Assembly (NCBI GenBank): GCA_036172245.1
Contig: JAYWIR010000031.1
Location: 2,108,001 to 2,172,000, forward strand
Reading direction: 5' to 3'
DNA length: 64,000 nucleotides
Source of the DNA: Raillietiella orientalis
Lineage: Eukaryota
Part shown: one piece after another, positions 1 to 63,099 of the stretch
How the letters are laid out: every line of letters begins with the position of its first letter
Position numbering within the stretch: position 1 is the stretch's first letter
Made by a program: the position numbers and the translations under genes
The notes under the pieces: model-generated
What the model was told of the DNA's origin: nothing
The model's input: only the letters and a program-made list of their open reading frames with translations
Databases searched by the model: none

Positions 1-185
1 TACTGAACTTCTTTAAACAGACCACTTATCTTTTGCATATTACAAATTGTTAATACAACGCTCATTAAACCAGGTATAAAACAGGCCAAGCTATAGTAAT
101 ACAAACTAGTACTAGATAGGCTGTAAACTAAAGTAAATGACAAAAAATATTTTATTGCAATAAATAACGCAATCTCCCTATTCAT
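1..185 (-). CDS. N-terminus of a hydrophobic, probably bacterial (Wolbachia-like) membrane protein ORF running off the window start
   Basis: 61 open codons MNREIALFIAIKYFLSFTLVYSLSSTSLYYYSLACFIPGLMSVVLTICNMQKISGLFKEVQ; SD-like AGAGG 7 nt upstream of the ATG; abuts the dnaA fragment. Family not recognised. Confidence 0.4.
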   Translation of the reverse strand, partial: MNREIALFIAIKYFLSFTLVYSLSSTSLYYYSLACFIPGLMSVVLTICNMQKISGLFKEVQ

Positions 186-255
186 AGAAGAACCTCTCTA
201 ATACATTTCCCAATAAATTCTTTAATTTTACCTACATTTTACCATAGTATTCACA

Positions 256-470
256 GTGGAAAAGCGCGTGGCAAAATCTGTGGATCCAATACTAGGTAGT
301 AACCCTTCATTTCTATATGATGGGGTGGGACTTGGTAAATCACACCTAATGCATGCTATAGCTTGGCATATAGTCAATTCTCCATCAGCAAAAAGAAAGG
401 TGATATATTTATCAGCAAAAAAGTTTATGTACGAAGCAAAGACATTATGTTATTTAAAGAGCAATTTAGA
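256..470 (+). pseudogene. dnaA: Wolbachia-type DnaA AAA+ domain fragment (nuclear insert)
   Basis: [57 protein letters not shown], then after a frameshifting deletion [13 protein letters not shown]. Matches DnaA [20 protein letters not shown]...YLSAEKF...FKEQFR; Walker A is mutated; truncated at both ends. Confidence 0.9.
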
Positions 471-614
471 TGGCATATTGGGTAGGAAGTAAACCAACTT
501 AATTTTCAAAGGTTCTATTGAAGAGCTAACCGTTGGAACAGAAAATGCCAAGCCAGCTAAGAAACCTTGTATTTGCTGTACTATTGTTTTGCACTGTGTG
601 CACCGTATGTCTTT

Positions 615-730
615 ATAAAATTTCCGTGTTTTTACCTATACAAGCCAAAACGCGCTTATAAAGCGTTCAAGACATCACCCAACGTCAAATTTTGGCATAA
701 AGAGTACAATAACTAGCAACTACAGGTTTT
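615..730. repeat. Wolbachia-type dispersed intergenic repeat fragment
   Basis: AGCCAAAACGCGCTTATAAAGCGTTCAAGACATCACCCAACGTCAAATTTT...AATAACTAGC resembles, from memory, a short repeat common in Wolbachia intergenic DNA; lies between dnaA and mgtE pieces. Confidence 0.5.
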
Positions 731-732
731 AT

Positions 733-950
733 TATTGGACAATAAACCAGTTGACAGAATTTTTGCGCAACTATAAAAATACACCAGAAAAGTTTCATCA
801 GGTTTTCATTATTGACTCCAGAATGGAGCCTATAGGAAGCGTCCATTTAAAAAAGGTAATATATCTCACTCAAGCGAAACACCAATGAAAGAGATAATGA
901 ATCAGGACATAAAAATCATTAAAACTGGAATAGACCAAGAGGAAGTAGCA
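733..950 (+). pseudogene. mgtE: MgtE magnesium transporter CBS-domain fragment, Wolbachia-like
   Basis: YWTINQLTEFLRNYKNTPEKFHQVFIIDSRMEPIGSVHLKKVI / frameshift near 860 / SHSSETPMKEIMNQDIKIIKTGIDQEEVA; ends in the MgtE signature DQEEVA. Confidence 0.85.
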
Positions 951-951
951 T

Positions 952-1080
952 GATTCGTATTTTTTTGTTCGTACCATCGCAAGAGCCAAAATTATGATGC
1001 CAAAGTCCTACATCCGTTTGTCAGCTGGACAGTAGAAAATGTCGGGTGAACTACAAGCATTATGTTTCCTTGATGGCGCT
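952..1080 (+). pseudogene. bioB: Biotin synthase C-terminal fragment with in-frame stop
   Basis: [42 protein letters not shown] versus the BioB pattern FIRTIAVARIMMPxSYVRLSAGRExM...QAxCFxAGANS; TAG at 1033-1035. Confidence 0.9.
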
Positions 1081-1219
1081 ACCCCTTCAACGTCGAGCAC
1101 TGCAAATGGATCTTTTCGAATATATTGTTTTCTTTACAGGAATCAAGAAAATTCACTGCATCGTCTCTTGAGAGCCCCACAGTGGTTTGGGTTAAATCAT
1201 TAGTGTCAAAACTAAAAAA
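1081..1219 (-). pseudogene. ppdK: Pyruvate phosphate dikinase C-terminal fragment, Wolbachia-like
   Basis: FFSFDTNDLTQTTVGLSRDDAVNFLDSCKENNIFE / frameshift / DPFAVLDVEG; PPDK signature FSFGTNDLTQ..GxSRDD...DPFxxLDxEGV with a G>D substitution. Confidence 0.9.
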
Positions 1220-1734
1220 ACATTAGTGACAAAATGCAGAAGGTTGAAAATTATTTTTTTAAAGAATGCATAATAAATAATCGTTTTTCATATAGGTTTA
1301 TATTTGAATGAAAAAAATCCTGGATCATGTGTTCTGATTAAATATCTATTATAGTCAACCTCTGCGTAGATATATTTCTAGTATATGTATTCCTAAAATC
1401 TAATCCTGTTGTATGCTTTGTATGATTTCGTAGAAGTGAAGACTTTTTAATTAGAAGTAAACAGAATGCGAAATGCATATCAACTGAAATCGGGATTTTT
1501 CCATCGTAAAAAGACTCATTTTCCTAACCAGTAACTTTCTTTTTTTTGCCCGGAAGCTCTAAGTCATTATGATATCAATGTACCTGTTGGCGTTTTGAAA
1601 GTCTATGTTGAATTCTTGCTTCGTTTTGTCCATATATAATGGCTAATAGTCTGACGCTGAAGGCAATATGTACAAAAGTCATGAAATCGCAACTACACCA
1701 CACTCGTATACTTCGGTATATAGAGATGATGTTA

Positions 1735-2520
1735 GGAAGGTTCACCCACATGACCCGCGATGTGTGGATCAACCACAACGACCTCGCGTGGTCTAGGGGG
1801 ACCAAAATAAACCTCCGAAGACTCATCAAAAAAGAGGACCGAGACATCAGTGCCCTCCAAGAAGCCGCCGATCGCTACGGGAGTGACCGGATCAACCTGT
1901 TAGCGATCGGAACTACGCTCTGGAGGAGTGACCTTCCGCCGGACACGCAGGACAACCTCCTGATGTTTTATCATGGAGGAATCCAAAGCGGGTCCAGTAC
2001 TTCAGTACTTCACCGGAAGACGGGAAGATCGAGACTGCGCAGCATATGGCGACACCGACAGGAGACTTCACGTCTTGACGTGTCCCACATTGCTACACGA
2101 CTGGCTGATCCTGAAAAGGATCATTGGACTCACCACCAGCTCCACAATGGAGATCCTCGCCGGGATGTTTCAGGGAGATGCTAATGTTCCCATGGTGAGG
2201 ACGACCATTGCCCTCTTCATCACCGCCATACTTGTGCGGTGGTGGAAGATGAGGAAAGCCAGGAGAGCCGCACCTCCGATGGAGATCCTTCAAGGACTCA
2301 TCAAGAAGGAGATCGGCATCAGGAATTGTGGGCGAATCCATGCCTGGACCTACCGATTCATCCTGAAGAGGATTGAAGACGACGCCCGGGAACAAACATC
2401 TGGAAACCCAACCTGAAAGCAGAACTTGTAATACCCCCAAGGACTTCAGAGTGATGTAAAGTGGGTATGTTGTATGAATGTGATTGTAGAATGAATGTGT
2501 TTTAAAAAATGGAAAATAAA
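1735..2520 (+). mobile_element. 5'-truncated non-LTR retrotransposon (L1/Tx1-like ORF2 3' end)
   Basis: GC-rich island in AT-rich DNA; overlapping ORFs 1639-2184 and 1973-2416 joined by a frameshift; degenerate CCHC knuckle CAAYGDTDRRLHVLTC; stop at 2416, AATAAA at 2515. Confidence 0.6.
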
Positions 2521-4355
2521 TTTACCCCACCCCTTGTGGGACTTGGGGAAAATCGCAACTTTGATGTTTCAATTGATTTGAATTTTTTGATTCAAAGGAT
2601 CACATATTTCCCAAATAAATTCTGTTTTAAATAGTATGCTATTTGTGTTCATTTCCTATTTAAAAAAATTTTTGATGTGAAATTGCTGACACAGGATTAT
2701 AAACATTCTGATGTTTCTTCATCTTTAAAAAAGATGGCAATATTTTAACGATTGGCAATGTTTTGACTGCTTGCTTATTATTCATATTTTATTTTTGTTA
2801 TTATTTCATGGGTTTTGACGGGTTATGTTTGTGTATTTTCGTATATTCTGATGAGAGATTGCTGTCAGGGATCCTCAAAATAAAGTGAATGCTTTTGAAC
2901 GTTCATACGGGCCTTTTAAGATGAAAACAGATTTTCTCTGTGAGAGATTTCTCTGGAACGAATCATCTCGTTTGAAAAATCTGTGCAGAATTCAATACTG
3001 AAAAAACTGTGATCTTACTTAGTTCTGAATAAAACCAAAAGTGTCTAATTTGAGAAAAATCTTTAGTCTAAGATTTTCGCTTCGGCAACAAGAAAACACT
3101 TTTTTCTAGAAATTGATACAAAAGTAACCGAGATCTTGAAAAAAGACTATGGAAAAATAAAGAACATTGGTAAAAATGAAGAACATTTCCTTATGAGAAG
3201 AAACCAATTACTTTATTGTGAGGATTAATATTGATTTATTAACAAGGCAACATTAAATTTTAAAAAGTGGATAGCCGACTGTTTTTTGCAGAAAAAAACA
3301 CAGAACTAAGCAGGGTATTTTTTCTGTAGTTTTAAAGCAAGTTAGTGGCTCGTTCCGTGTATCCACCAACGTTGAATTGAATAGTTGAGCACGTTTTTGG
3401 CCGAGTTTTGCATTTACATCTCGACTTAATGGTGTACTACTAAATTACTTTAAAATAGAATCAAAAAACACTTAAATTTTTAATTCTTCAGAATTACTAT
3501 CAACTCTTCAACATTAATACATTTTATCTAGGATGAAAACTCTAATTTTTGTAATTCTTCTTTGACGTTCTTAATATATCGTGGTATCCCCTGCTGAATG
3601 CCTTTTTTCCAAGGGGATCCTATCCACTTTTGCTTGTCTTTTTATGTATAAATGATATGGATTATTTAAACTGCTGCATTTGTATGGATGTGTGCACCCC
3701 TACATCGAATTTATAGTATTTGCAGAAAGCCTGACTGCTGGCACTTATTTTTTTATGTGAAGAAAGCATATTTTTAACAATCTTATGTGGTTAATAAAGC
3801 ACGTTCAAAAATAGGAGCTAACAATTGCCATAATATTACTGTGTTCCCAAAAACGTGTTTTATATCAAGTTTCTGTTTAAAACAAAAGTTTTTTATTTAG
3901 ATACATATATGAGGTTTGAAATTGATGATCACCTCACATTTCAACCAAATACTAACCTTTATAGCTGACATTCCTAAAGCTATGTCTTTTAATTATTTCT
4001 CAATTTAATATCAGTACTTAAGTGGAAAACAAACCGAATTAACAAACGCCTTGACTGATTGTGAAACCACGAATTGTGTGATTGCTAGTACTCAGAATTC
4101 AAGAGGTTACAGTGGGAAGTGAAGTAGCATTATAAAACCAGTATGCTTTGTCATTTAAGTGTCATGTTTTTCTTTTAATCTTGAAGCAATTTTCATCACG
4201 AGGGTCTAATGTAGATGAAAAGTTTTAAATTATTTCAGAACAGCCATGTGGCCTTGGCAGTTATCTTGCAAAAAGTAAAGCATACAGCATGGATATTAAT
4301 GTTTGTGAGAGTAGGACATGTAAAATGAACAGTTAATTATTTTGAAAGATTCACA

Positions 4356-7300
4356 ATGAAACAGCAACCAAATGCTAGCAGTATTCTCCCCTTCATCAGA
4401 GGGGTGGATTTGTCTGGAAATGATTTTCAGGTTTGACTGAAATTTCAGCTTTTAAAATTAATTATAATAGTGATATTACAAAGTTTAATTTATAGTATAC
4501 ATTTATAGTTGATATAAGAACAAATTTCTGACTGCATGATTGCGATAATTGTTTTAATTTGGTGGTCTGTTTCAAAAAAAAAAAAAAACTTGGTTTTTGT
4601 TATTAGATTGGAATATTTGTTTTGTGTTTTAGAATAAAAGTTTTCCTGTAAATCTTCCTCAGATGAGTAACTTGAAATGGCTATATTTGAACAGCAATAA
4701 TTTGGTTTATATTCCCGAAGAACTTGGAAAATTAAGGAATTTGGTAAATGTTACATCTTTTATTAATTTGTGTTGCAAAGTTTCCAGTCTATTAAATGCA
4801 ATGCAGTTTAAAAAATAACACATGCTTCAATATTTTCAATATTTGTGTGTTCATGTTGTTTAGTTTGACTTCTAAACCTTCAAGTGTTTTCCAAAATTAA
4901 TTACTGGAAACATTCCTGAGAGCCATATTTGATATGCAAAATTCTCTGAACAGTTTCTTTCTCATATAAATGTAATTGATGTTGAGCCTCATATTACAAG
5001 TAATTATGTAGTACCAAGGTTTCAGAATTGAAATGAATTGTATTGAATACCAAGCTGGATGAGTGTATCAACAAAGATAATCTCCCGGTACCTAATTGCT
5101 GCATTATTAAATTGTCTTTATTGCACCTTTATTGAATTGTTTTGAGATACACTGATTTACTTTACTAATTGCAACCAACTTTATAATGATTAGCAAGACA
5201 GATCAGTCAATATCTTTTTATTAATTTATTAGTACTTTATAGGCTAAGATTTTGTAATTCTTGTTTCTTTGAAAATCTAATATCTGAAATCATAGAGGCA
5301 TTTTATGGTAAGATGCAATTGAATGCCATTATATTTTGGTGTTTGATTAGGAAGCTTAAGAAATATTTATTGAGAAAGTATCATGTTGATTTCATCTTTT
5401 TCTTATACAAATATGAATTTGAAGCCTGTTACTCTACAGGTGACTGATTTTTAGGAACAGTTATCATTATCTTATAATAACATAACAAAAATACATGGAG
5501 AATTGACCCAACTTGATTGCCTCCGATCAGTGATTCTAAAGTATAATCAGTTGAAATCATCTGGCATTCCCACAGAGTTCTTTAACATTAAAGAATTGGG
5601 CATTGTAGACCTAAGTCATAATTCCCTGAATAAAGTGCCGGATGGGATTGACAAGGCAAAAAGATTGCTGGTATTGAATTTGAGTTTTAATGAGTGAGTG
5701 CTAAAATTAATTTGATTTCATTGTTTATGTTTTTTTGTTTATATAATTTTAGTTTAGAAACCATACCCAATCAAACATTTATGAATCTTACAGATTTACT
5801 TTACTTTGATGCAAGCAACAATAAATTAGAAACCCTCCCCCCACAGCTAAGGCGGCTAACAGGATTACAGACATTGATCTTGGACAACAATCCTCTTACT
5901 CATTTTCAGTTAAGGTATGTCCTAAAATCTTTGTGTATGTATGGTATATCATCTTACATATCTGTGTGAAGTTACATCTCTTATATGAGAGAAATTTTGA
6001 AATATAAGAGAAACAGTAATTTTCATTTTTTTATGGCTTTAATGTTTTTATGTGTGCCTAGACAACTTCCTTCTCTTCTGTGCATCCAATGTCTCAAGAT
6101 GAGAAACACTCAGAGGAACATTAGAAACATACCAGATAACTTAGAAATGCTAGTCAATTTGAATGAAGTTGATTTTTCCAAGAACCAATTGTGCAAAATA
6201 CCACCGGGTTTATTGTGCTTGCAAAATTTGAAAATTTTAAATATAAGTGACAATGACATTTCTGAGCTGCCACCATCCATTAGTAAGATAACCATACATT
6301 CATTAATATCAATATGCAATTCGAACTATTGTTTTTAAATATTTCATCTTCCAATTCTAATGACTTATAAGAAGTAAACTAATTTTGATTACCATTTTAT
6401 TATTAAGTTTATGATTAGGAAGCTTGTTAATTAGGTATCATAATAAAAGTTGTTTACTAGTGTCAGTTGCCAGATAACTTTACATCAGATGAATGTTCAT
6501 GTAAATGTTAGAAAAACCCTTATAGAAATCATATGTTCCAGGTTTTTAAAAAACTAAAATGTTTTTTTTTTTTGAAAAAAAATCATTTTAGTCACATTAA
6601 ATATCATTTTAGTACCATTTTTGTTTTTAAATGTCAGTGTATAATTTTTCTGATTGTATTTAAGTTAAATAGTTTATTTTCTGATTTGTTTTTATTCTTT
6701 TAGCTATCAATCTAACTTTGATTAATTTCAAATATATTTTTTGCTTTTTAGGTGTTTGGACAAAATTAGAAATATTAAATATTGGTCGAAATAAGATCTC
6801 AAGTCTCCCAACTGCATTCTGTAAATTGTCAAATTTAAGATGTTTCTATGCGAACAATAATTATTTAAATTTTGAAGGAATTCCTTCAGGAGTAGGAAAA
6901 CTTTCTAATTTAGAAGTATTCATGGCTTCAGATAATAACCTGGAAATGATCCCTGAAAGCCTTTTACGGTAGTCATTATTTTATGATATTATGTGTCTCT
7001 ATGATATATATGTAGGTAAATTTAGCAATACATCATCAAGTGTTCTCATTAATGTGGTGCGATTTTTCTTAAATGAAGTTGTACATAAGTGCTATTCAAG
7101 TTGTACATAATTGCTTTTTCCATATAACATCAAATTCTATTCATATGCCTTTTCCAGAATAAGCATAAAGACATTTTTGTTGGTGCAAGTTAAGATATTC
7201 AAATACTTGTGATAAGTGTGATTCATATCTTGTGATAAGTATTGTTTCCATTTAAATGAAACTTATTACATTGAGAAAGAATTTTGTAAAAAAAAACAAG

Positions 7301-10300
7301 AACCATAACTCTAGAATTATGCTAAGGCTTGAGTGAATCTGTATTTAACTTGTAATGCTAATGTGGTTACTTGTTTATTATTCTTGTTCAGAACTTTAAC
7401 ACAGTCAGTACTTTTAAATTCGTATCTTTTTTGTTTCTAGCAGATGCAGAAACATGTTCCATGAATAGCAGACTGTTTGAGTAGTTATTTATTTATTTGT
7501 TGCTTGTTAAGTATTTTGCTGATGTATGTATTTAGATAGAAGAATTTCTGAGGACTGTGGCAACTTGTAAATCATTTTTCATCATATACATAAGCTCCAT
7601 GTGCTATTTTTTTATAATGCTATCCAGAACAGCATCATGAATTTTCAGTATCATGAATACTTTGGTTTCTTTCTGCTGTTAGCATTGTCTGCAGTGATCT
7701 TTATTGTCCATTACTGTTACATCATTTTGGTTGCTTATAATTAATGTTGGTTTGATTTCATGTAAAAATGAAATCTTCAAATAGAATCATTTCGATCTTG
7801 TGGAACTCATAATTGTATGTTCTTTTGCATCAGTAATTCTGTGTTTGGTTTGATACATGTTTTGTGCATGTATATTTGTTTGTGGAAGAATTTTGACATG
7901 CGATCAAAGGATTTCAGATGTTTTTCAGATAATTATTGATGCTTTCAGATGCTGCTCTTTAAAAAAGTTAATCCTTTCCAACAATCGCCTTGTGACAGTT
8001 CCGGATACCATATATTTGACTGAAATTAAATGTTTGGACTTGAGTGGAAATCCTGATCTCGTCATGCCTAGGAAGCCGGATAATAAAATTAAAGAAACCA
8101 ATTTTTCCATTAATGGATTGCTAAATGAAAAGGAGATAGACAGCAATGTAAAGGAAACCATTTTTAATGATGAAGAGAGTGAGCATCAGTAGTTTTGTTT
8201 TTCTGATTTTATTTTCTTCTTAAATGTATCTGTTTTCTGATTTAAAGGTTGCATTTGAACATTCATAAATTTTAGCAGTATCAGCAAATTTAAATCTTTG
8301 ATAATATTAAGGATATTGTAAGAAAGAGCATCAAGTACCAAATATTTTGACAGAATATGCAGAGATTCCTAAAGTAAAATTAAATGGGGTTTTAAAAGCA
8401 CTTTTTTTGTACACTGAAAGGGGTTGATAATTTCTGCTTTTAAATTCAATATTGTTCTAATATATTCATTTAAGTAATGGGAGATTTGCTCCAAAAAAAA
8501 GACTTTGTGTTTGTAATATTAATGATCAGTTATTACTATCAAGGAAGAAATGTCCATTTTAATCAAGGACTGCATTGGGTGAACATGCAAAACTTTTGGT
8601 TATTGAATTCTGCATATATTGTTTTTTAATAAAATCTAATGTTGTTTTGTTGTCGATTTTAGATTGCATGAAAGATACAATTGCACGAAAATTGCGTTTG
8701 AGGCGATCTAGAAAAGATCATGAACAAGCTGATAAAGATCAAGCGAAAATACTGAAAGTAATGAAAATAATACTTCTTTCCAGTATATAACATTTATGAG
8801 TACTTGATGATTATTTTTAGAACATAAGTATTTTAAAATATTTGTTGTAAGGTCTTTGTTCATGAACATATTAGTGTGCTTAAATAATAGTCAGGAAACC
8901 ACAATTGTCTATGAATTTCACTTTAGTGATCATATAAAAGCAAAAAATATTTTACATGCTTGGGTATTCTGATTACCTATTGAAACAACCTATCATGGCT
9001 GTTCAATTCCTAGAATTTGTGCTTGGAAACCACATATGTAAAGTGTCGCACAAGTCGATTTTTTCGTTATTGATCTCAAATTTTCTCTTCTTTTTTTTCG
9101 GGACCATGATATTTTGACATACTTTAAGAGTGAATTCCAAACAATTAAATAAACAAGTATTTCGAAATTTCTCCAAGTTTCTTAGGAGAAAGATTGAAGA
9201 TGGGAATGTTTATCGGAACTTTACAGAGTAACAATATAAGTGGCCATATAAAAATTGCAAATAATTTCTGTGACTAATATATGCATTTATGCATGCTGTT
9301 TTTCATCTCTAAGGTTTATCTGTTTGTTGTTCTTGTGTGCTAGCATAAATTATACTGTTTGTTCTTCAGCAGTAGCTTGATTCATTAAAGTTTCTTTTTA
9401 TTATCTAAGTAGTTGCTATAATGCTTCTTAATATGGCTCATTAGTGCTTCTGTCTTTAAAACATTTTACAAATCAACTATTTCATAGATGCTAAGTGTGA
9501 CATGAAAGTCAAGGATAAGCTGGAAATGCAATTTCTGCATCTTTAATAGGTAATTGCTTTCAATAATGACAGATATCTCCCATGTTTTTAATTACTTTTG
9601 CTTGTATGTGTAGGCAGCTTAATTTTGCATTAGGACTTTTTACATTTTCAACAATATTGATTAGCATTTAGAAGAAGAATTCTATTATTTTCACTAGTTA
9701 TGTTATATCTATTAGTTTTAATCATTAAGCCTTAACACACTTTAAAGTAGTGAAAGCAGTGTTTTAATAATTGAAGTGCACATTATGTGCATACATTATA
9801 TATACTTTGAGTTCATATCAAATTCCGCTTATCTTTTATAATAATGGTTTATACAAATTTCTCTGCGTGTTTCAGTTAATATTGAGTATTTTCTGTATTT
9901 CTGAGAAAGCCTTGATATTTTTCCTTTCATCTAGGGGATGAAAGAAGTAACCAATGAAAAATATGGAAGTCATATAAGTCAAAATGATCCCAATCTGTTG
10001 AGGTAATTTTGTTTCTTCAAATTCTATTTGATTTGCATGCATTTTTAATTTTTATATGAAGATTTATGTGTCTTAAAATACAAGTTTAGGAGTCTAATCA
10101 GTTTTCAGTATTTCAAAGGGATGAAATTTTTGCTGCTTGTCTAAACGTTGGAAAAGATTTCTGTATTTTTGAATAACTAATGGATTGATTTTTATTGATG
10201 AAAACTATCATATTATCTCTTATTGCAGACCAAAAAAATGGGACGAATCCTTAGAGAAACCAAATCTTAATTACTCCGATTTTTTTGAAGAAGAGACTGG

Positions 10301-13300
10301 TCAGCTTCCTGGAATTACTATTTGGGAGATTGAAAACTTTCTTCCCTGTCAAATTGACGATAGTTTACATGGACACTTCTATAGTGGTGATTGCTATATA
10401 ATCCTCAGCACATTTGTTAATGAAGCAAATAATCTTGAATGGAAAATCTATTTTTGGATAGGGAGTGATTCAACTGTAAGTATAAATGTGGAATATTGAT
10501 ACCAAAGATTCATTAACTCAAAATTTACAGACCATGTGTAAAATACGTAATAAACAAATAACATAATTTATTCTTTGGTTATTGTAAATCCGAAAAATCA
10601 AAAATTTTAAATAATTCATAGCAATATTGCTCTATAAGATGAATGATGCAGAATTCTGTGGATAACTGTAGCAGATATGTAAAGCAGCCAATCTCCCCCA
10701 CTTAAGTTGATTGTCTGTTGCATTGATATAATATTGCTAGCAAGTGTGAGAAATATCCGTGGAGAGTGATGCTTTCATAGGACATTTTGTAGTTACTCAT
10801 TTAAAGATTAAAATTCGTTTTTTTAAAAAGTTTTGCTTGGCCAAACTAATTTAAAGTTTGCTTAAATTTGAAAAAACAAAGAAAAATGCAATTTCCAGAG
10901 CAAGTAATTTGAAATGAACGAAATTTGAGCATTCAGCCATAAGCATCGGAAAGTATATTATTTGTGTCGAGGGGAGTTCAAAAAATTTGCATATCTTTCA
11001 AATAAGCAGCTTACACAGAAGTATGCTTGGCTTGAAAAAAAATTTTTGCAGTATCTTTTCTTGCAAGAAACTTTGAGCTGAAGTCATTTCTGTGGTCATA
11101 TTTCCTGATAAGCATGTATTTTTCATGCCACCTTTATGTCAGCCATTTCCGTATTGGGGAAAATTCCTCTGGTCTATGTTAACTTCAGATTATGGGAATG
11201 AAAGAAGTGTTTTTTTCCTCCCCATAAAATTGATAGAACCAAAATTAAGATAGATCTTTGAAAGTCAATTTTCATGTTTTGCTTAAAGTGAATTAAAGAT
11301 GAGTAAAGTTTGCTCGCTTGTTTTACTTGGTTTTGTACTGAAATCCATGTTAGTTAATAAATGCATTTGTCAAGCGTGTTATTTTTAGATTGATAAAAAG
11401 ACGTGCTCTGCAATACATGCTGTTAATCTAAGGAATTACCTTCGGTGCACATGTCGTACCATAAGAATAGAACAAGGAGAAGAAACAAACGAATTCTTGA
11501 GTTTATTTGAGAATTTCATTTTGCTGCAGGGAAGCAGAACAGTTAGTGGGTTTTATACTGTGGAAAAACCCGTGAGTTATGTTTGTAATGAATTTTATCT
11601 ATAATTATTGATATCATTGAATCCATGATTGATCGAATGTTTCTAGAAGTGAAAATATATTTCATGAAATATTCTGATAAACAGCAGGGGGATGGAGTAA
11701 TTTCGAAAAATAGTCTTTCTGTTTACTTGCAAACTTTAGCTTGGAAGAATTTATTAAGATCAAATTGTACACAATATGATAAAATCAGGATTTTAGATTT
11801 TTATCTCTAATCCTCTTCTTCAGCAAATCTGTTTCGATATTAGATGTGAAGATATGAATTTATTTTAAACGATTTGCGATTTAAGATCAAATAAATCAAA
11901 TACTTTGATCTTGAAACTAACCAAAGGTTATCAGAATTTCATTGCAATTTGTAAAAACAAACACAAAGTGAACATTGCTAATCATTAAGTGTATAAAGTG
12001 TATAACATAATTCATTCATCTATAAACTATTTCTTTATTATTCTGAAAACTTATTTATAAATATTCGAAACTTTATAAGAAAATATCCATAAGAAGAATC
12101 ATAACTCTTCAAGTAATATTTGTGTGCACTAACTTTTACAGATGGTAAGAATAGACCTGTGTGAATGCGTATGATAATCACTGAAAACCTAGGTATACAT
12201 ATTCCTGAATTAAATTATGGAGAATGTTCATGGACCATTTTTAATTTCATGGATTCATTCATTTAGGTATTTGTTTATGATGTTTACAAAATTCGGTAAA
12301 CAACGGTATTCAAGAAATAAGAAGAAACACTACTCATGGTGTTGCTGTATTTATTTTAGCTTAAACAGCTGAACCATGATTTACTGTATTCGATGTAATT
12401 TTTATTCCAGTGTGTGTAGCATAGCATGCATCTAAATTGGAAGTCTATCATTACTATTTGTTGTTGAAGTATTCATAATTAATTTGCACTATATATTTGT
12501 GGCTTGGTAGTTCCTTAAAAATATTTATAATTATGTAAAAATTATTTTCATGTATACATTTTCTTCAATAGCGAGAGAGGGATGCAACAGCATTTTCAAA
12601 ATTGATATGTTATGTGTTTAAGGACTTTTCTATCTGTGTTGAGATATCAGAATTCTAAGTAAATGATCCAAGTGGAGAATGCATTAGTTGTGTTGATTTA
12701 AAAACGAAGAATGAATTTCGGCCATACATAGGTCTTCACAGTATTGTGTGGACGTTTTCTGGTACTTTTTCTACAGTTGATATAACTTCATTTTCGTTAA
12801 TTCATTTTTGCACATTTTGCAATAGTTAATTGTAAAATAATTCAGTCGCAGTATTCAATATAGAATCGTTATATTAGAAGTTGTTTTAAAAAGTGGATTC
12901 TTCAAATATTTTTTATGTGGATGGATTATATGGGAAAGGAAAACGAACTTCTTATTTGATAATTTTTGAACCATAGTTCGAGAACTGATTTGTCTGTTGT
13001 GGAAGGAAAAAAAATTAATGCATACATATTATTAATCAGTTCATGCAAGTATTGTTAACGATGTTTACAACAACTTAGAAATAAAAGTAACTTGCGATGT
13101 TTTGTAAAAATTGGTGTTAAATGCTTGAAGAGACATTGACTTGAATTTTCATCATAAAAAAAATGTTTTGAAAGCAGTGAGCATGCCCTGTTAATGGTTG
13201 TGGAAAACATCTTAAAATAATTTTCTTTCAGGAATATCCTCTGCGCCTGTATCAAATACATTGCAGTGGAATAAATGTATTTATGGAATCTGTTATGCTT

Positions 13301-16300
13301 CATCGCAAATCTCTGGATCAACATTTTTGTTACCTGCTTGATACTGAAAATAACATTTATTTATGGATGGGTGCATGCTCGAAAAAGACGGACCAATCTA
13401 AAACACGGTGTGGGTTCTACAAACCATGTATATAACACAAAGGATTATTTAGGTTACTGGCAGAAAAAATCAACAAAGTTGAAAAAAAAAGTTCCTCAGA
13501 CATACAGGTGTTAAGCTCGGAAAATCAGAATTCGGATTTCTGGGATTTCCTAACTCTAGATGATAAGGATTCTCATCAAGTGAGCCTGTTTTGCCGTTAT
13601 GCGTTTATATGTATAGTAATCACAATAAGGATAGCTTTATATGGCGGTAACTTTTTAATGTATGGGTATATATGTGCACCTTTCATTAATGCATGTAGCC
13701 CTTTTTTCAACTTTTAAGTCCTTACGTAATGTTGTAAAGTTACAAATCCTGTGGACCCTTGTTTTTAGTGTAAACGCGAAAGATCCCTTCTAGAAGTTAG
13801 AAAATTAAAGCCCTCGATAATTTATGCGGAATAATGTAATTGGCTTGGTTTTAGAGTGATGCTGTGAATGTAAAGCAGCATGATCTTATTTTGTTTAGCA
13901 GTGTATGATATTTATTGTGATCACTATAGGAGGCTGTTTGTCATACAATAACTTCAAAGCCCATTTTATATGAAGTTGGATTGGGATTAGGGTATTTGGA
14001 ACTCACGCAGATTGATAATTCCAGAAAAAGGTTGATTCCGTCTTTGTTACACACAAGTGGCTCATACATATTGGACTGCCATAATGATATGTTTGTTTGG
14101 TGAGTTTTCCTGTATTTATTTTAATATGAACATATTATGAAATCTTCAAATTGAATCAGAATTCATTGTTCCTTCGGTTTTACTTTCCTTATGTCAAGCA
14201 TTTTCCCAATACTTTGATTTGGTTCTGTAACTAATTACATGACTAGTAATGGTTCTTTCAGTGCTTCAAAATACTTCAATGGTACTTTTTTTTTTCTATT
14301 CATTAAATTTTTCCTCATAGAAGCCAACTATCAATAATGATTGGATAATTTATTTCAGAAGATAAATCACAGGTTGAAATTCTCAAAATAAAATGATCAA
14401 ATCTCAGGGTATTATGCACTGTTTTCATTGTCATGAGCAATTCAATTCTTTTCTTTTTTGTTGAAATTTTCGAACGATTGTAAATGATAATGTAAATGAT
14501 GATCGTGAGTCCGTGTGTGTGTGTGTTTTTGTTAAATGTCTTTGTGTTGTAGTGCTAGTAATTTTGAGAGCTAATAATTTTTGTCATATCCAGTTGAATA
14601 TAGTTCGGCTTTTGGTTTTTTGACACTATTGACATGCTTGTGCTGAGATCGCAAGACTATTTTACAGGCATCTTGGACTGCATTGCGATTGTATTTGATA
14701 TGTTTAGATCTTCTCAACTGTCTGAAACTTCAAGTAACTATTCCATTAGCATGAGCATTTGACTGAACTCTAAACTAGACGTGTGCCGTCTTCTTCATGC
14801 ACCAGCATTTTTACTAGTCATTACAGTACTCTAAAACTGAGTACGTTTGTTTTAGTTGTTGCATTGAAAAGCATGTAAAATCCGTGAACGCATCAAATAT
14901 CCGTGTATCGTATATGTATGCCGTCTTCTCACTTAATCATGTTGTAACGGTGTATGCAAACAAACTACTTCGTTAATCATTTCATAGGATAGGTTTGAAG
15001 TCGAGTCGCTTGTTGCGAGCTGCAGTCTTTAAACTGGCACAGGAGCTGTTCCGGATGCTGGAAAGACCCAGTTACTCCATGATCTACAAGATATTAGAGG
15101 GAACAGAGACGGTTGCGTTCAAATCGAAATTCACCGGATGGGATAATGTTATTGCTGTCGATTTCACGCGAACGGCGAATTCAGTTGCAAGGACGGGAGT
15201 GGATTTGAAAAAATGGGCAGAAAATCAGCCGATGAAGGTATGGGGTATGTATGTGACATGCTCTCATAGTTCGTTATGTTCTTGAGGCGGACCTGGTTGC
15301 CCTGTTCATGCCTATGCAACAAGTGATGCTGTATGAAGAAGCGATTCAGTTGTCCGATGAATGGAACGAAGATCTTGAGGTTATGGATGCATATGTTTTG
15401 GAAGGGAAGAAATTTGCTCGGTTGCCAGAAAGTGAATTGGGTATTATGAAAATTTTTCCAGTATACATCATACATTTGTGTGTTTGTATCATCTACATGC
15501 GTATATTTGCATAATTGTCGGCATCGCTAGAAGCCAACGTAAAAATTAGGGAATATTTTCAAACAGCTCCATGCCAGTTCACTTTCCCCGTTTACTTCTT
15601 TAGTCTTAGCTGGCATGTTCGGCGTTTTACCAGTGTACCGTACGCATAAATTTAACCCGTGTGCGGTGGAAGGTATGGAGGTGTAGCTCAAAAGATTGAA
15701 ATCCGAGGTTTCATATTTTACTGATACATTCTAAATAAGATCTTTATGTCGGAAGTAAAGTTACTATTGAACGAAGTTTTCATGCGGAGTCGACGGTTCT
15801 GTTTATACGTTTCATCATCATTGGTTCCAAACGATTAAATTTGCAAGTCAGGGGTGCAGAAATGACGAACTGCCCTTGCATTAGTTGTTGAGACAGTAAA
15901 TTGCATTGAAGGACTGAGGAATCTTGCAAGTAATTTGATGCATCCTTTTGAGAAACCGCAACTTATCCAACCGTATGCCTTTATGGTTGGATAAGTTGCG
16001 TGCGCCAAAAATTGTATGTAAATTCAGGGTACACTGATGTCTTCCCTAATGCTTGGAAGAGACCGAAGTTCAATGAAAATGTCAGTTTTTTCCATGTTGA
16101 GATAACGGATTGATGATACCCTGTATTTTCCTTACTTGACCCGGAAAATATTTGCGTTTCCCCGCGATTTCATACCTGGATGCACTTCGGTTTCCCACAT
16201 TCGATCGCCAGAGTTTATGTAAGAATTCCATCAAGAATTTCATTCCCCCCCCCTCCCGTGCTGTCCAAATGCCCATTGATTTCGAATGATTGCGACGGCA

Positions 16301-17845
16301 GCTGGGTAGTGAATCCGTGTTCCATTCATCCGATCCATTTCGTGTAAATTTGCTTTTCTAAAACTCGACCAGACGTACTCTGTTGAGGAAGCTGTGAGGA
16401 ATACACTGAATCTTTACAGGTCATTTTCACAGCGGGGATTGCTATGTGTTTCTCTGCCGCTACTGGCTGCAGTCAGAGTGTTCAAACACGGAGAGTAAAG
16501 AGGACGTTCCTTCTCAGGAGGATGATTTTCAGTGCATCATATACTTTTGGCAAGGTCGCCACGCATCCAAAATGGGATGGCTAATATTCAAATTTAATCT
16601 GTGGAAGAAGTTCGAATCCCTCTTCCCCGGAAAATTAGAAACCATAAAAATGTGCCAGCAGCAGGAAAATCTGAAATTCATGTCACACTTCCGCCGTAAA
16701 TTTATCATTCATAAAGGCAAACGATGTGACGCGAAAGGAAACGTCGAGTTCTTCCACATCCGCACGAATGGAAATCCTATATGTACAAGGTGTATTCAAA
16801 TAAAACCCAGTGCAAGTCTCCTGAATTCGTCCTTCTGGTATATACTTATGTTTTGTTTTCACGCTTTCCCTTCACTTTTCACTGCTACCACCTCGACTGC
16901 CCCCCGCCAAGGGACACCGAAAGGGCCTTCTTCTCCTTCCACCCCATTCTAACAGTTTCCGTCATTGGTTTGATTGTAATGCTTCCGTACCTTAAAGCCG
17001 CGGAGTTGTGACGGGGTGTACTGATTCCTGGAAATGGGGAATTTACCGTAATACGTGCAATTTGGAAAAGGAAAAGGGGAAAAATTTTGTGTGTCACTGC
17101 TAAGAATTTTTGAAATGTTTTGTAGCTACATTCTCATTGTGCATTTCGACTCCCAAATCGAAAATGGGATTAAGTATGTGTGGATTGGAGAGAAAGCCAT
17201 TCCGGATGAAGTTGCATTAGCAGAAGAAATAGCCTTAAAGCTTTATCCAAAGGTGTTTATGTGAAATGTCGTCATGACGAATTCTCAGTAGTATTCCATT
17301 CAGTTGGTTTGCGAAGGGGAAGAGCCGGAGAATTTTTTTTGGCATGGTTTGGGAGGCAAGCAGGAGTACGAAAAAGATGGCACTTTTATCCAACACTTGC
17401 GTTTGTTTCGATGTTCGAACGAGAAAGGCTATTTTTCCATCTCCGAAAAATGTCAGGATTTCTGTCAGGTATTATCTCTCGGATTTTCCTTCGTGCCTTA
17501 TTGATTTTCTCAAATTTGCTGTCAAGGATGATTTGGAAGACGAAGACATTATGATTCTTGATAATGGGTCTTCGGTGTTCCTTTGGTTAGGTTCTCAGTG
17601 TAGTGATGTTGAGATCAAAATGGCGTACAAATCTGTTCAGGTATGTGTGTGTGTAACGAATAAAGATACTCAAAATTGGTTCCCCCCCCCCCTTTTTTTT
17701 TTTTTACTTTTTCTTTTTCTAGGCATACATTAAACACTTAAAAATCAGCGAACCGGCGAAGCCAAGAAACCTGTATCTTACTTTCAAGTCCAAAGAATCC
17801 AAGCGCTTTCAGATGTGTTTCCATGGCTGGGATGACGACACATAG
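4356..17845 (+). CDS. FLII: Protein flightless-1 (LRR plus gelsolin repeats), about 21 coding exons
   Basis: Exon 1 4356-4430 [25 protein letters not shown]. Further exons approx. 4633-4743, 5455-5692, 5753-5914, 6062-6282, 6752-6968, 7949-8178, 8663-8757, 9935-10002, 10229-10475, 11389-11571, 13231-13408, 13453-13579, 13930-14099, 14988-15237, 15287-15440, 16421-16837, 17126-17252, 17292-17468, 17528-17640, 17723-17845. Motifs [39 protein letters not shown], terminal CFHGW. Confidence 0.97.
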
Positions 17846-41901: not shown

Positions 41902-43961
41902 ATGAGAAAAGTTTTGAATTTTAATATCGGTGTTCTTGGTCATGTTGATTCAGGCAAAACTTCCTTAGCAAAGTGCCTTAGTACTATAGCAAGCACAGCG
42001 TGTTTTGACAAGAATCCCCAGTCAAAAGAAAGAGGAATAACAATAGATTTAGGATTTAGCAGTTTCACTTGTAATCCCCCCGATCATATTAGAAATGCTG
42101 GATTTTCAGATCTTCAATACACATTAGTAGATTGTCCTGGACATGCTTCACTCATCAAAACCATCATTGGAGGTTTGATATTTTCTGATTCGAGGTGAAT
42201 CGAAACCTATAATTACGATTATGCTTTGCACACAGGATCCCAAATCATTGATCTGATGCTTTTAGTTCTTGACATAACCAAAGGTATTCAGACACAAACT
42301 GCCGAATGTCTTGTAATTGGGGAAATTACGTGCCCCAAAATGATTGTTGTTCTGAATAAAATCGATCTGATTCCCGAAGGTAAACTTACAGAGACTATTC
42401 ACAAGGTGCATAAAACTTATTTATTTTCTATGTTGGTTAACCAAATTTCAATTTTTTTTTAAAATCCTGTTTTAATCAAAGAAATTGGTGTGAAAGTGTG
42501 CAATGTGAAATGTAGCACAAAATCGCTGTAAGGTTATTTGCATTATTCAAACACTTGAGTCTCATGTATTTCAAATGTTTCATGCATGTAACTTATGCAA
42601 AAGCTTTGGCAATTTGGTCCGTTAAAAAGGCAAGACCGTTTTGCAAAACTGTAGTAGTTTGTTTTTCTAGATGACAAAGCGTCTACAAAAAACACTAGAA
42701 GTCACATGTTTTGCTGGAGCACCAATTGTAGCAATTAGTGCAAAACCTGGTGGTCCTGAGTCAAATCTTCTTCCTGTTGGTGAGATTAAAGAAGTGCAGT
42801 ATGTGTAATGCAGTTGTGCTGATGCAGATGTGAATCAGCTGGTGGATGTTATTCGTTGCCATACATATATACCACAGAGAGATTCATCTGGCCCATTTTT
42901 GTTTGCTGTTGATCACTGTTTTAGCATTCGTGGACAAGGAACTGTGATGACAGGCACAGTACTACAAGGTTGCATTGCTGTTGGTGATGTAAGTTGGTTA
43001 CAGTTTGGTTGAAATGCTGGATCAATTTCAGATGGTGGAGATTGCATTTCTCAAGCTTAAAAAAAAGGTCAAAAGCATTCAGATATTTCATGAGTTTCAA
43101 GAATCTGCCCAACAAGGAGACCGCATTGGTGTATGTGTAACTCAGTTTGATGCTAAGCTCTTAGAGAGAGGCCTGGTTTGTACCCCTGGGTTCCTTTTGT
43201 TCACTTATGCAGCAATTGCCTCCATTACAAAAATTCCTTACTTTACAAGTAGTTTATTGAGCAAAAGTCGAATCCATGTTAGTATGGGTTACACAACAGC
43301 CTTACCACAGATCACTTTTTTTGAGGGTTGTGAGGAGGATCTTAATTGGAATAGCGAGTATTTGTACAAGGAGGAGCTCAGCTCCGAGGGTTATCAATTT
43401 GTTCTCATGGAATTTGAGCAACCTGTGATAGTAGTTCCTAATTGTGTCCTTATTGGATCACGCTTAGATGGAAGCATTCCACCAAATTCTTGTAGACTGG
43501 CTTTCAAAGGACAACTTAAGGAGACATTTGCAGAAATTGGTTATAAGTCCAAGATACTCTCTTCGCTTAAAATATACAAATGCAAACAGAAGCAAGGATT
43601 AGTAGATCGAATCTGTGGACCTCACGAAATCATTGGCAAGAACCTGTTCAAAAAACAGACCAATGTGCAGCCATTTATGGGTATGCAAGTGCATCTATCG
43701 ACTGGTGAACAAGGAATCATTGAGAGTGCCTTTGGACAAAGTGGGAAAGTAAAAATTAGGATACCCCGTGAGTATTTCTCTTAATATACAAAGTGACTTC
43801 TTGTTCTAGAGGGTCTTCATGAGTCCACTTTAACATTGTTGGATGTAAATAGAAAGAAAGGGAACAAAGCAATCGAAGAATCTGTCAAAGAAGTGCAGTT
43901 GACAATTAACTTCAAAAAATATCTATTCGATAATCGGAAACAGTCTTTACAAATTAAGTGA
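41902..43961 (+). CDS. EEFSEC: Selenocysteine-specific elongation factor, 6 coding exons
   Basis: NFNIGVLGHVDSGKTSLAKCLST..FDKNPQSKERGITIDLGFSSF; LVDCPGHASLIKTIIGG; VVLNKID; AVDHCFSIRGQGTVMTGT; CRLAFKG; FGQSGKVKI; TGA 43959-43961. Confidence 0.96.
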
Positions 43962-49386: not shown

Positions 49387-52300
49387 TCAATGTAATTTTT
49401 GGTGCCGGTTCAACCCATCATTTCTGCGAAATGTCTTTTTACAAATATTGCATTCATATGGCTTGATATTTTGATGGATCTTTAGATGTCTGCTTAAATG
49501 ATCTTTGCGATAAAACACTGCACTACACACCTGACAAGTAAACTGGTAGTAATGTTCAGGTTCTTCATTCTTATCATGATTTTCCAAATGCCTAAGCAAA
49601 TTGTATTTGCGATGGAATGTTTTAACGCACATTGGGCATTGAAATGTGTTTTCTTCTAAATGCTCCTTCATTTTGTGGCCATTCAACATAGATAAGGTGG
49701 GAAAACCTGCACTACATGAATTGCATTTGTATTGATTGGGATCATTTTGTGTTTGGGGCACATGTACGTGCTGGCGAAATGCATCAAGATCTTTGAATTT
49801 CAACTTACATGTTTCACAAGTATAGAGAGGAGGAATATGTCCCAAGTCTCCATGTATTAACTGGACATGGCTAGCTAAATGTGCCCACCAATTAAACTGT
49901 TTATGGCAATGTTGGCATTCCAGTGGGCCTTCTGATCTATGATGACGCATATGATTCATTAAGCCAGAACGTGTCTTAAAATGAGCTTCACATGCTGATT
50001 CCGGACAACAGTAAATTGTATCATTCAAACCAACTAATTCTGAAGTGTTGTATGATTTGGGGAAGGAAAGGCTGCTGTTCAGAGGAAATGCAGGTAAAGA
50101 TGAATTGTATCTGCCATTATGACTTTCTAAAATGGAGAAAGTCTTCTCATTTGCTTCAGAACAGCCATTGGCTACAGAATGATTTGGATTTAACTGGGAG
50201 TCGCCATCCATCTTGGGATTAGATCTCAGGTCATTGACATCTGCTTTATTGTCCCACTGAAGAAACATAAATTCATCATATGAGAGAGAGAGGAAAAAAG
50301 ATCCACATTATACATAAGTAGATTTACTAGTAAATAAAATTGATGTTTTAAATATCATTTTAATGAAATGCAAGTTTTATTTTTTTTGATGACCCCCTCA
50401 ATTTTATCAAAGATCTACCTGTTTCACCTATCAAGAAAAATCATTTTTATTCCTCTATCAGCAAAATGCATGCAGATATTACCTTGTTTGTCACTTGACA
50501 TTTATTATTTGGAATGCCAAGATTCTAAACACTTATAATGGGCTCACATTTTCTAGACCACAGTATTCCCAAAAATCCTTTTTCAAAACAATTTTTCGAT
50601 CCTAGCATTTTCTTTTCTTTGAATTAGAATGCCTCAAATCATACAAAACATTATAAACGAAGTCTACACAACAATGAAAAAAAGGACCTTCATAGAACTT
50701 TCAAAAATCACCATTCAAAGAAAGTGCTCACCCATACCATCACGTTTATCTTTTCTAATCATCTGAATTTACAAGCTACATCATGCTGAGCAATGCTATA
50801 GAAGAATTTAAAGTCACTGCATTCCAAAATTCTAAGATTGCTTACTGTTTCTTCTGTGTACAGTAATAGGTGCAAAATAGTGCTAAACAAGTCTACTTCT
50901 TGGATAATTTACACAGAAAAACAGTTAAGAAATGACCACCATACGATAAAATATTTGTATGGAAAGTAAGGTTTCTGCATGGGATTTCAGGATCACAGAT
51001 TCATAGAAAAATTCAAAAGGAACTATACTAGTGTCACGAAATCAACTGCAAATAAGTTAAATGATTACTGTCATGATACAAAAACAGCATATTTGTACAT
51101 GTGTGTACACATATAGGATGATCTACATACAAAACATATAGCATGACCAGTAACAATGCAAACAATAACTTTTAGCAACAGTAATTCAAGCAATGTATGC
51201 ATGAAAATTCAAGAATTTTTGAAACATCTATGTACATTGGGTATACATGCAAGCACTGCAACCATATGGATCATATAAACATGAATGAATCTGCCTATGA
51301 ATCACCTTAATACATCAAAAAAGCCAAATACTTAATTTATTTTGAGCATTAAACCAGTATGTGCTACTAAATCATATTTTGGACTTACAGCAACACTCTC
51401 AAAATCCCGGAGTTCTTAAAAACAACACCTGACAATGTTTACTTAAAGCTTACCTGTCCTTTTGGTTTCTTGCCACAGAGTACATTGTCATCTAAGATTT
51501 GAGAAATCCAACTAACTGGTGTTGATGAAACATTCGAATTTTGTACAAATAAATTTGCATTCAAGTTAGCAGGCAGTTCGTTTTCTACGTTAGTCAATGA
51601 TGATAACCTCTTGAGAGCATTCTGAGGATCAGCATTTCCTTCTTGTAATTCCACCCTACAAAGATTACTGACATCAAGAGCTCGATTATCACTGGAATTC
51701 GGATTAAAATGTACAGCACTATAATTAATGATCGATGTTTGAATTGCACTGGTATGTCTGACTGTGTTAGGATCAAATGGAAAGTATGGCATATTTTCAT
51801 AATTTGTTGTCAATGATCCTACATCTGAGAGTTTCGATATCACAGCTTGTTTTTTCCCAAATGGTTGAATATTAGTGAAAGAACCATTGTTTTTTACAAC
51901 AGACTTATCTTGATATAATTTTCGTATTTCTTTTTTGATTTGTACAACTTTAACTTCAAACGAATCCACCATTTCAATCAAGTTTTGGCATCTTTCACAA
52001 ATATACGATTCACTTTGATGGAATTCAGTGAAGACGCCAACAAGTACTTCCTTTAAAAATTTTAGAAAAACTGTACTTGTGCATGCTGTTCTAGATCCCA
52101 ACATGCATAAACCTTCAAAACTCCCATTATCATTATTTGGTATTGTCTTTCCACAAACAAAACAGACTATATCAAAATTTCCATGACTGAATTCCATTTG
52201 GGTCACCAAGCTTCCATCAGATTGTCTGTATTAAAGAAATATTCTTTAAGGAGAAATATGCATATTTACATCACATTTATGGAGATTTTATAATTTTATT

Positions 52301-55900: not shown

Positions 55901-56471
55901 ATAGTACTTACGTCTGTGAAGCTATTTGATATTAACAGATTACCATTAGAATAGTTTGAGAATTTCACCAGTGTCCCATCTACTACTGACCCATTCGAAA
56001 CTCAAGTGATCAATGCATAGATACGAATTTTTGGGAAGATCGGGTTGCCCCCTCATTCTTTCGAACCGAGCCAGTCTCGAATGGACGGCCTCGACAACTT
56101 GAGGGTGCCCAAGTGCACATCCATGTGGAGGTGCATCTTGGTGAAATGGATCCAGTTAGGCCCGCTGCTGGCTCTCCTTCCCGAAGCCGTTTCCTCCCGA
56201 GAGCACTCCTGTTCTGCAACCGGGGATCAGTTCCTCCGTCCGACTCAGCGTGCTCTGTGCAGGCGCCCGCCTGCTCCAGCGGGGCGCAGCAACGTGAATG
56301 TGTGCGTGCGCGTGCATCTGCAGCAGCAAACATCCGAAGCACCTCTATCGAGGAAAAATCTCTATTGACCAGATACCCTTTGCTCGACAAATAAATGCCA
56401 GAGCAGTTGGATGGAAATGCCGAACGCACTTCCATGAGGCACAGGTCGGAAGACACGCAATTGGCATGCTG

Positions 56472-56480
56472 ACCACCACC

Positions 56481-56512
<32 letters not shown>

Positions 56513-56520
56513 CAACAACA
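56472..56520 (+). repeat. Compound (CAC)n(CAA)n microsatellite
   Basis: Direct reading. Confidence 0.95.
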
Positions 56521-57084
56521 AAAAGACAAAAAATGATTGCGGTTCATTAATCCTTCGCGGTGAAGTCCATTTCTGCGGTCGGATGTGCGATTCAGAGTGC
56601 CAAAAAACGTGCTGGCAAAGGTCGGCGATTCATTTTCGAACCATTCTTTTCCCGGGAGATCAGCATCAGAAATCTCTCCTCTTCCTCCCCCCTACCTCCC
56701 CTCCGAAAAAACGAAAAAAAGAAACAAAAAGAAGAAGAAGAAGAAGAAGAAGAAGAAAAAAAACGTCCTCGTGAAAGGCTCATTACCATGAGGAACAAAC
56801 CAACGTTTCGCACAGAGTCCTCCAGAGAGCTCGTAATCGTTCGTTACGTTGCCCTTTGCCGTCTTCTCTGCTGCCGATTCCTGTGTCATATTTTTAGCCT
56901 GAGGACGCACAACTGATTAATCCTTCTTCAATCAGCTGCAGAGGGAAAACACTTCTTTTCCTTGAGAAATACAGATTTTCAATCAGCTTGCGATGATGAT
57001 TCGAGACTCCTTGCATTTCATCTTGGCGTAACGGCTAAAAAAGGAGGTGGAGGGGGGGGGGAGTGGATAAAAAAAAAAAAAGGA

Positions 57085-57091
<7 letters not shown>

Positions 57092-57152
<61 letters not shown>
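57092..57152 (+). repeat. (GA)n microsatellite
   Basis: Direct reading, about 30 units. Confidence 0.97.
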
Positions 57153-57158
<6 letters not shown>

Positions 57159-57499
57159 GAAGACGAAGAAGCTCTTCTTCCGAGAGCAAACATTTGCGAC
57201 TCCCCAGTTGCCTCCATGTTTGAAGCTGCGCGCAGACTGTACGCGCACTCGCGCATGCGCGGAGAGCAAACATCAGGTCAATCACATGCAAATCCGTACG
57301 CGTAGGCAACGTTTTGCACGGGGAACACCAAAGATTTTTCTTAGCGAGGGATCCACATCTGGAACCGCGCATATGCGTCGCTTTTCCGGAGGGTGTTTTC
57401 AAGGCATACAGATCCAGAATCAGCTGCAGAGAGATTCCTCGAGGTTACAACGACGCGTCTTCTCGCTGGCAGCAGATGGTTGTGCATCGGACGGATCGT

Positions 57500-62876: not shown

Positions 62877-63099
62877 CTGAAAGATGGAAGCGGACCGTCA
62901 TCCAGCGTCGGCACTCTCGGGAGGCTACCGCTACGCATTCTGGAAAATCTGCCGCCTTTTCGGGCTGGCCTGTCGGAAGGGACGACGCAGCGGGCGCCGG
63001 CGGCGGTATTCCCGTACGGCTTAGGAACGGGATGGGGAGAAGGGTGTGTGGTGGGGGGAGGGAAGCGAAGAAGTGGCTCCCATATCCGGTGGATCGGAA

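Follow-up and report, generated by a model that had tools for sequence, protein, structure and literature searches.

The 64,000-nt stretch of the Raillietiella orientalis contig JAYWIR010000031.1 that was analyzed here (hereafter, the window) opens with a mosaic of Wolbachia-like DNA. From position 1 to about 1220–1231, seven pieces, each 93 to ~245 bp long, abut one another in the order CPBP/Rce1-like (−), dnaA (+), fabD (+), a Wolbachia repeat, mgtE (+), bioB (+), and ppdK (−) (Table 1). The limits of the pieces were set by local alignments to Wolbachia, and the genes were named according to the Pfam families found on the Wolbachia open reading frames (ORFs) underlying each match. An earlier annotation made from the letters alone (the first-pass annotation) had proposed seven such pieces, and blastn searches and local alignments recovered all of them at the positions that it had given. 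The piece that it had left unassigned proved to be fabD, as indicated by alignment and by the Acyl_transf_1 family on the corresponding Wolbachia ORF.

Table 1. Features of the mosaic and of the DNA downstream of it, in window positions; G numbers designate individual Wolbachia genomes
Feature	Position	Strand	Remarks
CPBP/Rce1-like membrane protease N-terminus (piece A)	1..244	-	runs off window start
dnaA fragment	245..471	+	best match 82% nt identity (G009), E 6e-69; Bac_DnaA on Wolbachia ORF
fabD (malonyl-CoA-ACP transacylase) fragment	467..559	+	best match 81% (G005); Acyl_transf_1 on Wolbachia ORF
Non-coding multi-copy Wolbachia repeat, internal part	559..733	.	matches 76-91%, best 84-91%
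mgtE fragment	730..953	+	best match 86% (G060, G056), E 1.5e-69; MgtE_N, CBS, and MgtE on Wolbachia ORF
bioB (biotin synthase) C-terminal fragment	951..1079	+	best match 90% (G049); Radical_SAM and BATS on Wolbachia ORF
ppdK (pyruvate phosphate dikinase) C-terminal fragment	1079..1231	-	best match 87%, E 1e-43; PEP-utilizers_C on Wolbachia ORF
AT-rich flank without Wolbachia match, taken as host DNA	1232..1611	.	
Leucine-rich repeat (LRR) exons	5455-8189	+	
Gelsolin-repeat exons	10173-10496, 13181-13432, 16410-16949	+	3' of the LRR exons
Eukaryote-type eEFSec (selenocysteine elongation factor) exon	42993-43781	+	
Multi-finger C2H2 zinc-finger gene	49390-50307	-	

The Wolbachia origin that had been claimed for the pieces was supported by the blastn searches. 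Matches to window 1–1300 were found in all five Wolbachia genomes that were reached through the dnaA piece, and among 60 reference Wolbachia genomes, the region 730–1240 was matched in every genome and the region 1–560 in 59. The six pieces other than the CPBP/Rce1-like one matched Wolbachia sequences at 81–90% identity at the nucleotide (nt) level, with E values from 7e-18 to 1.5e-69. The existence of a decayed, Wolbachia-derived mosaic at this locus is near certain.

The dnaA piece encodes part of the AAA+ ATPase region, including the Walker A stretch. It is ~88.5% identical to Wolbachia over its aligned bases when its 19-nt deletion is left out; at the protein level the identity was 80–82%, and of the 526 candidate stretches that were confirmed, those most closely related to it were Wolbachia. 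The mosaic has a single sizeable ORF, of 78 amino acids (aa) at 256–492 (+), which had been listed as dnaA in the first-pass annotation. We rejected this assignment, since alignment revealed a dnaA/fabD chimera: the ORF opens with dnaA codons, continues out of frame past the 19-nt deletion, and then runs through the first codons of fabD to end at the TAA of that piece. The fabD piece, aligned to DSILGRKLSHLIFNGPIEELTITENAQPA, was matched as a single copy in the majority of Wolbachia genomes, and the mgtE piece corresponds to the CBS-domain region, as judged from its position in the Wolbachia ORF.

For the repeat piece, dozens of matching copies were found per Wolbachia genome. The Wolbachia copies at loci L091, L096, and L092 stay alike outside positions 559 and 733, so both cuts lie inside the repeat unit, and no ORF was found under the match in L091. 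The non-coding repeat represented by L091, L092, L096, and others is at least 180 nt long, and genome G001 holds mainly a 104-nt core of it (window 587–690). An Rfam search of two Wolbachia copies returned only an unrelated tRNA and no family for the repeat, and a search of window 1–5000 returned no matches.

bioB was matched in only 12 of the 60 Wolbachia genomes, two of which (G044 and G035) carry two copies each. Most of the organism-named top protein matches of the bioB piece were Wolbachia BioB. Biotin synthases filed under Trichonephila clavata and Parthenolecanium corni (P0139, P0160, and P0152) were 74% identical to the piece, as were many Wolbachia BioB proteins; these entries may represent symbiont contamination or further transfers. 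At the far end of the mosaic, the nt match of the ppdK piece stops at 1219 and its protein-level match (FFSF) reaches ~1231, placing the mosaic-to-host boundary somewhere within 1220–1231. The end at 1234 that had been proposed earlier was slightly too far downstream, because nt similarity to Wolbachia stops at ~1219–1231.

Piece A differs from the other six. On the minus strand it has an ATG at 185, from which the frame is open as far as the window edge, and its translation (3–185) was 43–46% identical to ~280-aa ORFs of Wolbachia genomes G020, G057, G017, G038, and G007, which belong to Pfam PF02517. At the nt level, positions 1–167 were 61–65% identical to this Wolbachia accessory gene. A homologue at E<1e-3 was present in 5 of the 60 Wolbachia genomes, and a sample of 301 genomes from the order yielded two with a match to the piece, one of them Wolbachia. 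Judging from these similarities, piece A is best read as an unsampled variant of a Wolbachia accessory gene, an assignment less certain than those of the other six pieces; bases 168–244 may be upstream DNA of its own gene.

We next consider where the pieces came from in the donor. The positions of dnaA, fabD, mgtE, bioB, and ppdK were tabulated in 12 Wolbachia genomes, in none of which the pieces were contiguous. The closest spacings observed were 19.8 kb for dnaA–fabD, 30 kb for fabD–mgtE, 62.5 kb for mgtE–bioB, and 21 kb for bioB–ppdK, and most spacings amounted to hundreds of kb; the donor loci are thus not neighbors, as had been expected. The strand relation flips between neighboring pieces in 11 of the 12 genomes. 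Furthermore, the ends of the dnaA, fabD, mgtE, bioB, and ppdK pieces are all cut within genes, and such cuts in dnaA, fabD, and ppdK would be incompatible with a living genome.

Five of the joins could be mapped. In ungapped views, the pieces overlap by 3–5 nt (TAGAT) at the dnaA/fabD join, by 1 nt at the fabD/repeat and repeat/mgtE joins, by 0–3 nt at the mgtE/bioB join, and by 1 nt at the bioB/ppdK join, and none of the five contains filler DNA. The last two had already been described as direct joins, and they are. Direct joins with short overlaps and no filler are the product expected of end joining.

Alignments to Wolbachia showed how far the pieces have decayed. The dnaA piece carries the frameshifting 19-nt deletion, the fabD piece an in-frame TAA stop and a 3-nt insertion, the mgtE piece a 2-nt insertion and a TGA stop, the bioB piece a TAG stop, and the ppdK piece a 1-nt deletion. 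The stop or frameshift that the first-pass annotation had attributed to each of the dnaA, mgtE, bioB, and ppdK pieces was thereby verified, and its view that the DNA decayed after capture is supported by these lesions and by the pattern of change across codon positions. Relative to the nearest Wolbachia, the mosaic differs at 26, 20, and 59 sites at codon positions 1, 2, and 3, whereas differences among living Wolbachia are distributed as 17%, 10%, and 73%; the two splits differ significantly (chi-square p=4e-4). Among sites that are invariant in the reference genomes, 8.5%, 6.9%, and 12.4% were changed in the mosaic at codon positions 1, 2, and 3. Such near-equal change at all codon positions points to neutral decay.

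In a tree built from 468 columns of dnaA and mgtE, the end branch of the mosaic measured 0.16–0.17, compared with a median of 0.028. In this tree, of whose 8 inner forks 5 are open, the mosaic lies near the base without a firm position. From these alignments, we read the divergence as ~7–9% neutral change since transfer, plus third-position divergence of what would be an unsampled donor lineage. At the neutral rate of insects, which amounts to a few times 1e-9 per site and generation, the transfer would date back on the order of 1e7 generations. The decay at invariant sites did not differ significantly between five pieces, piece A being left out (chi-square p=0.19 for positions 1+2 and p=0.30 for all positions), in a test that is weak because the pieces are short.

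The joins were also sought in reads, using one public DNA run (X1) that is stored as short-read contigs built from 31-letter words. A 281-nt contig of depth 6, identical to window 654–934, bridges the repeat/mgtE join, and a 151-nt contig of depth 3.4, identical to 978–1128, bridges the bioB/ppdK join, each with at least 49 nt on either side of the join. Since contigs of 31-letter words cannot fabricate joins with a 1-nt overlap, these two joins belong to actual molecules, which are present at low copy. The depths of 6 and 3.4 compare with 7–35 for copies of a dispersed repeat that neighbors the mosaic, and no unique host stretch was covered; the run lacks cover over 1–536, 1207–1608, and 2681–4000. 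For the end-to-end arrangement that the first-pass annotation had proposed, the two internal joins in X1 thus argue against an assembly chimera, but the join between mosaic and host has no such cover.

The mosaic lies at the edge of DNA of a different kind. A comparison of window 1201–64000 with three Wolbachia genomes gave no match, nor did the 64-kb window contain a further copy, direct or inverted, of any mosaic piece. Apart from the mosaic, the other 62.8 kb of the window is animal DNA with intron-bearing genes. It begins with ~400 bp of AT-rich DNA, followed by a dispersed-repeat fragment at ~1612–2550. The LRR exons followed by gelsolin-repeat exons have what we take to be the domain order of flightless-I, and the mosaic is situated ~4 kb upstream of this flightless-I-like gene. 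The eEFSec exon was ~45–50% identical to the best named proteins, which come from insects, a mite, a cephalopod, and fish; from this exon, the host would appear to keep the selenocysteine machinery. As judged from these gene models, the mosaic sits in an intergenic stretch of gene-rich DNA of an animal, which the eEFSec exon suggests is probably an arthropod, and its location in the nuclear genome is likely, a statement that we make with good confidence.

The dispersed-repeat fragment (+) contains two overlapping ORFs of 190 and 150 aa, and a Pfam search of the ORFs at 1612–2413 returned no family. Many diverged copies of it were present in X1, with 4–12 differences each. A Cys...Cys...His...Cys stretch, CAAYGDTDRRLHVLTC, resembles the C-terminal motif of ORF2 of retrotransposons lacking long terminal repeats (non-LTR). 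In view of this motif and of the copy number in X1, the fragment is probably a 5′-truncated long interspersed nuclear element (LINE). At the other end of the window, the region 55000–64000 had a GC content of 50–63%, compared with 27–45% elsewhere, and contained long overlapping ORFs on both strands; apart from a weak, Atrophin-1-like low-complexity match at 56917–57522, these ORFs had no Pfam family.

The history that we favor, and regard as reasonably probable, is that of an old nuclear Wolbachia transfer (NUWT) of a complex mosaic type, in which end-joined shreds were captured once. Lysis of Wolbachia in a germ-line cell would have released DNA that was then fragmented to ~100–250 bp. Host end-joining repair would have chained seven or more of these pieces, drawn from unrelated regions of the chromosome and set in either orientation, with 0–5 nt of microhomology, and the chain would have been captured at a chromosome break in the intergenic stretch upstream of the flightless-I-like gene, where it would have drifted neutrally without selection, gathering ~7–9% substitutions, five indels, and four stop codons. 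We infer the single capture, the shredding before joining, and the germ-line break as the site of capture. One joint event had also been suggested in the first-pass annotation. The uniformly small size of the pieces and the lack of a significant difference in decay between them speak for it, but it is favored rather than proven. Most likely, the mosaic makes no protein and does nothing.

Several observations weigh against this history or limit it. With only five mapped joins, microhomology is not distinguishable from blunt joining or from chance, and only two of the six joins between pieces were bridged by reads. Because X1 has a depth of 0 over 1207–1608, a region that includes the mosaic-to-host join, the physical linkage of the two is seen only in the assembly; X1 may, moreover, be the very sample from which the assembly came and hence not independent of it. 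Piece A is far more diverged than the other six pieces, and a global protein search with it scored none of 14 candidates, which weakens the case for its Wolbachia origin. Divergence of the unsampled donor lineage before the transfer is not cleanly separable from later decay. Finally, in G005, where all four genes lie on one strand, deletions alone, starting from a concatemer of more than genome length, are, strictly speaking, a conceivable history.

This last point leads to the idea of a large colinear Wolbachia insert, measuring anything from tens of kb to over a genome, that was whittled down by later deletions and inversions. The breakup of large NUWTs "by neutral genomic processes" is described in the consulted part of a published report (PMC12693587), and in G049, fabD and mgtE are 30 kb apart on one strand, so that a repeat copy could sit between them. 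Nevertheless, stepwise deletion gives no reason for remnants so small and even, with six joins in 1.2 kb, and neither filler nor host DNA separates the pieces. The strand flips seen in all but one of the tabulated genomes also speak against a colinear insert, and even in G005 the order of the genes is not monotonic within one turn of the genome. Taken together, these points make such an insert unlikely. Copying instead of ligation is a different matter: the pieces could have been assembled at one break by microhomology-dependent template switching on free Wolbachia DNA, of the microhomology-mediated break-induced replication (MMBIR) or the polymerase theta type. Overlaps of 1–5 nt, short segments, and mixed orientation all fit template-switch repair, and the sequence holds nothing that separates it from the ligation of fragments. 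Segments of 93–245 bp are, however, long for templated insertions by polymerase theta, and two or three of the joins have an overlap of only 0–1 nt; we consider copying to be a rather unlikely route.

It is very unlikely that the mosaic is an artifact, that is, a misassembly or a contaminant not linked to the animal chromosome. Its position at the very start of the window and the uncovered join to the host could be taken as signs of one, but the stops, the frameshifts, and the ~8% change at Wolbachia-invariant sites show that it does not stem from a living symbiont in the sample, the two joins with a 1-nt overlap recur in X1 contigs, and the depth of the mosaic is below that of the neighboring dispersed repeat. 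Highly improbable, too, is a retained function, either as a source of small RNAs of the PIWI-interacting RNA (piRNA) kind directed against the symbiont or as regulatory DNA of the flightless-I-like gene. In its favor, the pieces point both ways relative to their genes, which would make any transcript of the array antisense to part of the Wolbachia mRNAs, and the LINE-like fragment is 400 bp away. Against this stand the seemingly neutral decay at all codon positions, the lack of any inverted or direct duplicate of a piece in the 64 kb, the ~12–17% divergence from living Wolbachia, which leaves few perfect 20–30-mers, and the gene-rich surroundings, which are no transposon graveyard. A bolder scenario, in which the 1.2 kb would be the edge of a longer upstream chain of nucleosome-sized shreds, a genome-wide sample of an ancient biotin-operon symbiont captured in one catastrophic event and kept as a source of antisense small RNA, strikes us as extremely unlikely.

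The capture of end-joined shreds, as favored here, would make the locus a clear, junction-resolved example of symbiont DNA entering a genome as chained short shreds and not as one block. The bioB piece indicates that a Wolbachia with the biotin operon, a minority type among the reference genomes, once lived in this host lineage. There are also practical consequences: mosaics of this kind can pass for live infection in Wolbachia screens based on the polymerase chain reaction or on reads, and they can yield spurious ORFs, such that an automatic annotator could call the 78-aa chimera a dnaA-like gene. The shred-chain pattern itself is known from transfected DNA and from organelle DNA. In the scrambled transgene arrays that result from transfection or biolistic delivery, end joining chains shattered foreign DNA at one locus, with order and orientation left to chance. 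Those arrays are experimental and recent, whereas the mosaic is natural, old, and presumably fixed in the germ line.

Published cases of nuclear Wolbachia transfer already include neighboring pieces that derive from separate parts of the genome (PMC3849323, PMC12693587), and we compare these cases here with the mosaic on the basis of those parts of the reports that were consulted. The NUWTs of Onchocerca are described as short degenerate fragments averaging 434 bp and grouped into "regions" (PMC12693587), in Brugia malayi, two nuwts that lie side by side stem from separate parts of the Wolbachia genome (PMC3849323), and Dictyocaulus carries fossil Wolbachia fragments with frameshifts and stops (PMC4046930). 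The mosaic resembles these NUWTs of filarial nematodes and arthropods in that short, degenerate Wolbachia fragments with frameshifts and stops lie in animal chromosomes. It differs from them in that 1.2 kb holds a minimum of seven directly abutting pieces whose joins are mapped, and in that one of these derives from the biotin operon, a locus that no more than 12 of the 60 reference genomes of Wolbachia possess. It also differs from the filarial cases in its host, which is not a filarial worm and whose eEFSec is ~50% identical to arthropod proteins. We found no junction-level account of a multi-piece Wolbachia mosaic in the literature, in a survey that did not cover the full texts and supplements of the papers.

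A parallel in structure may be drawn with insertions of organelle DNA (numts, nupts, and "numins"). Complex, mosaic organelle insertions with end-joining signatures are known from plants (PMC6215612). According to the consulted part of that report, non-adjacent donor fragments are joined before or during integration, and the joins bear short-microhomology signatures of end joining that erode with age (PMC6215612). The mosaic described here shares the joining of non-adjacent donor fragments, but its donor is an endosymbiont's bacterial chromosome of the free-living style rather than an organelle genome, and all of its visible pieces come from one donor genus.

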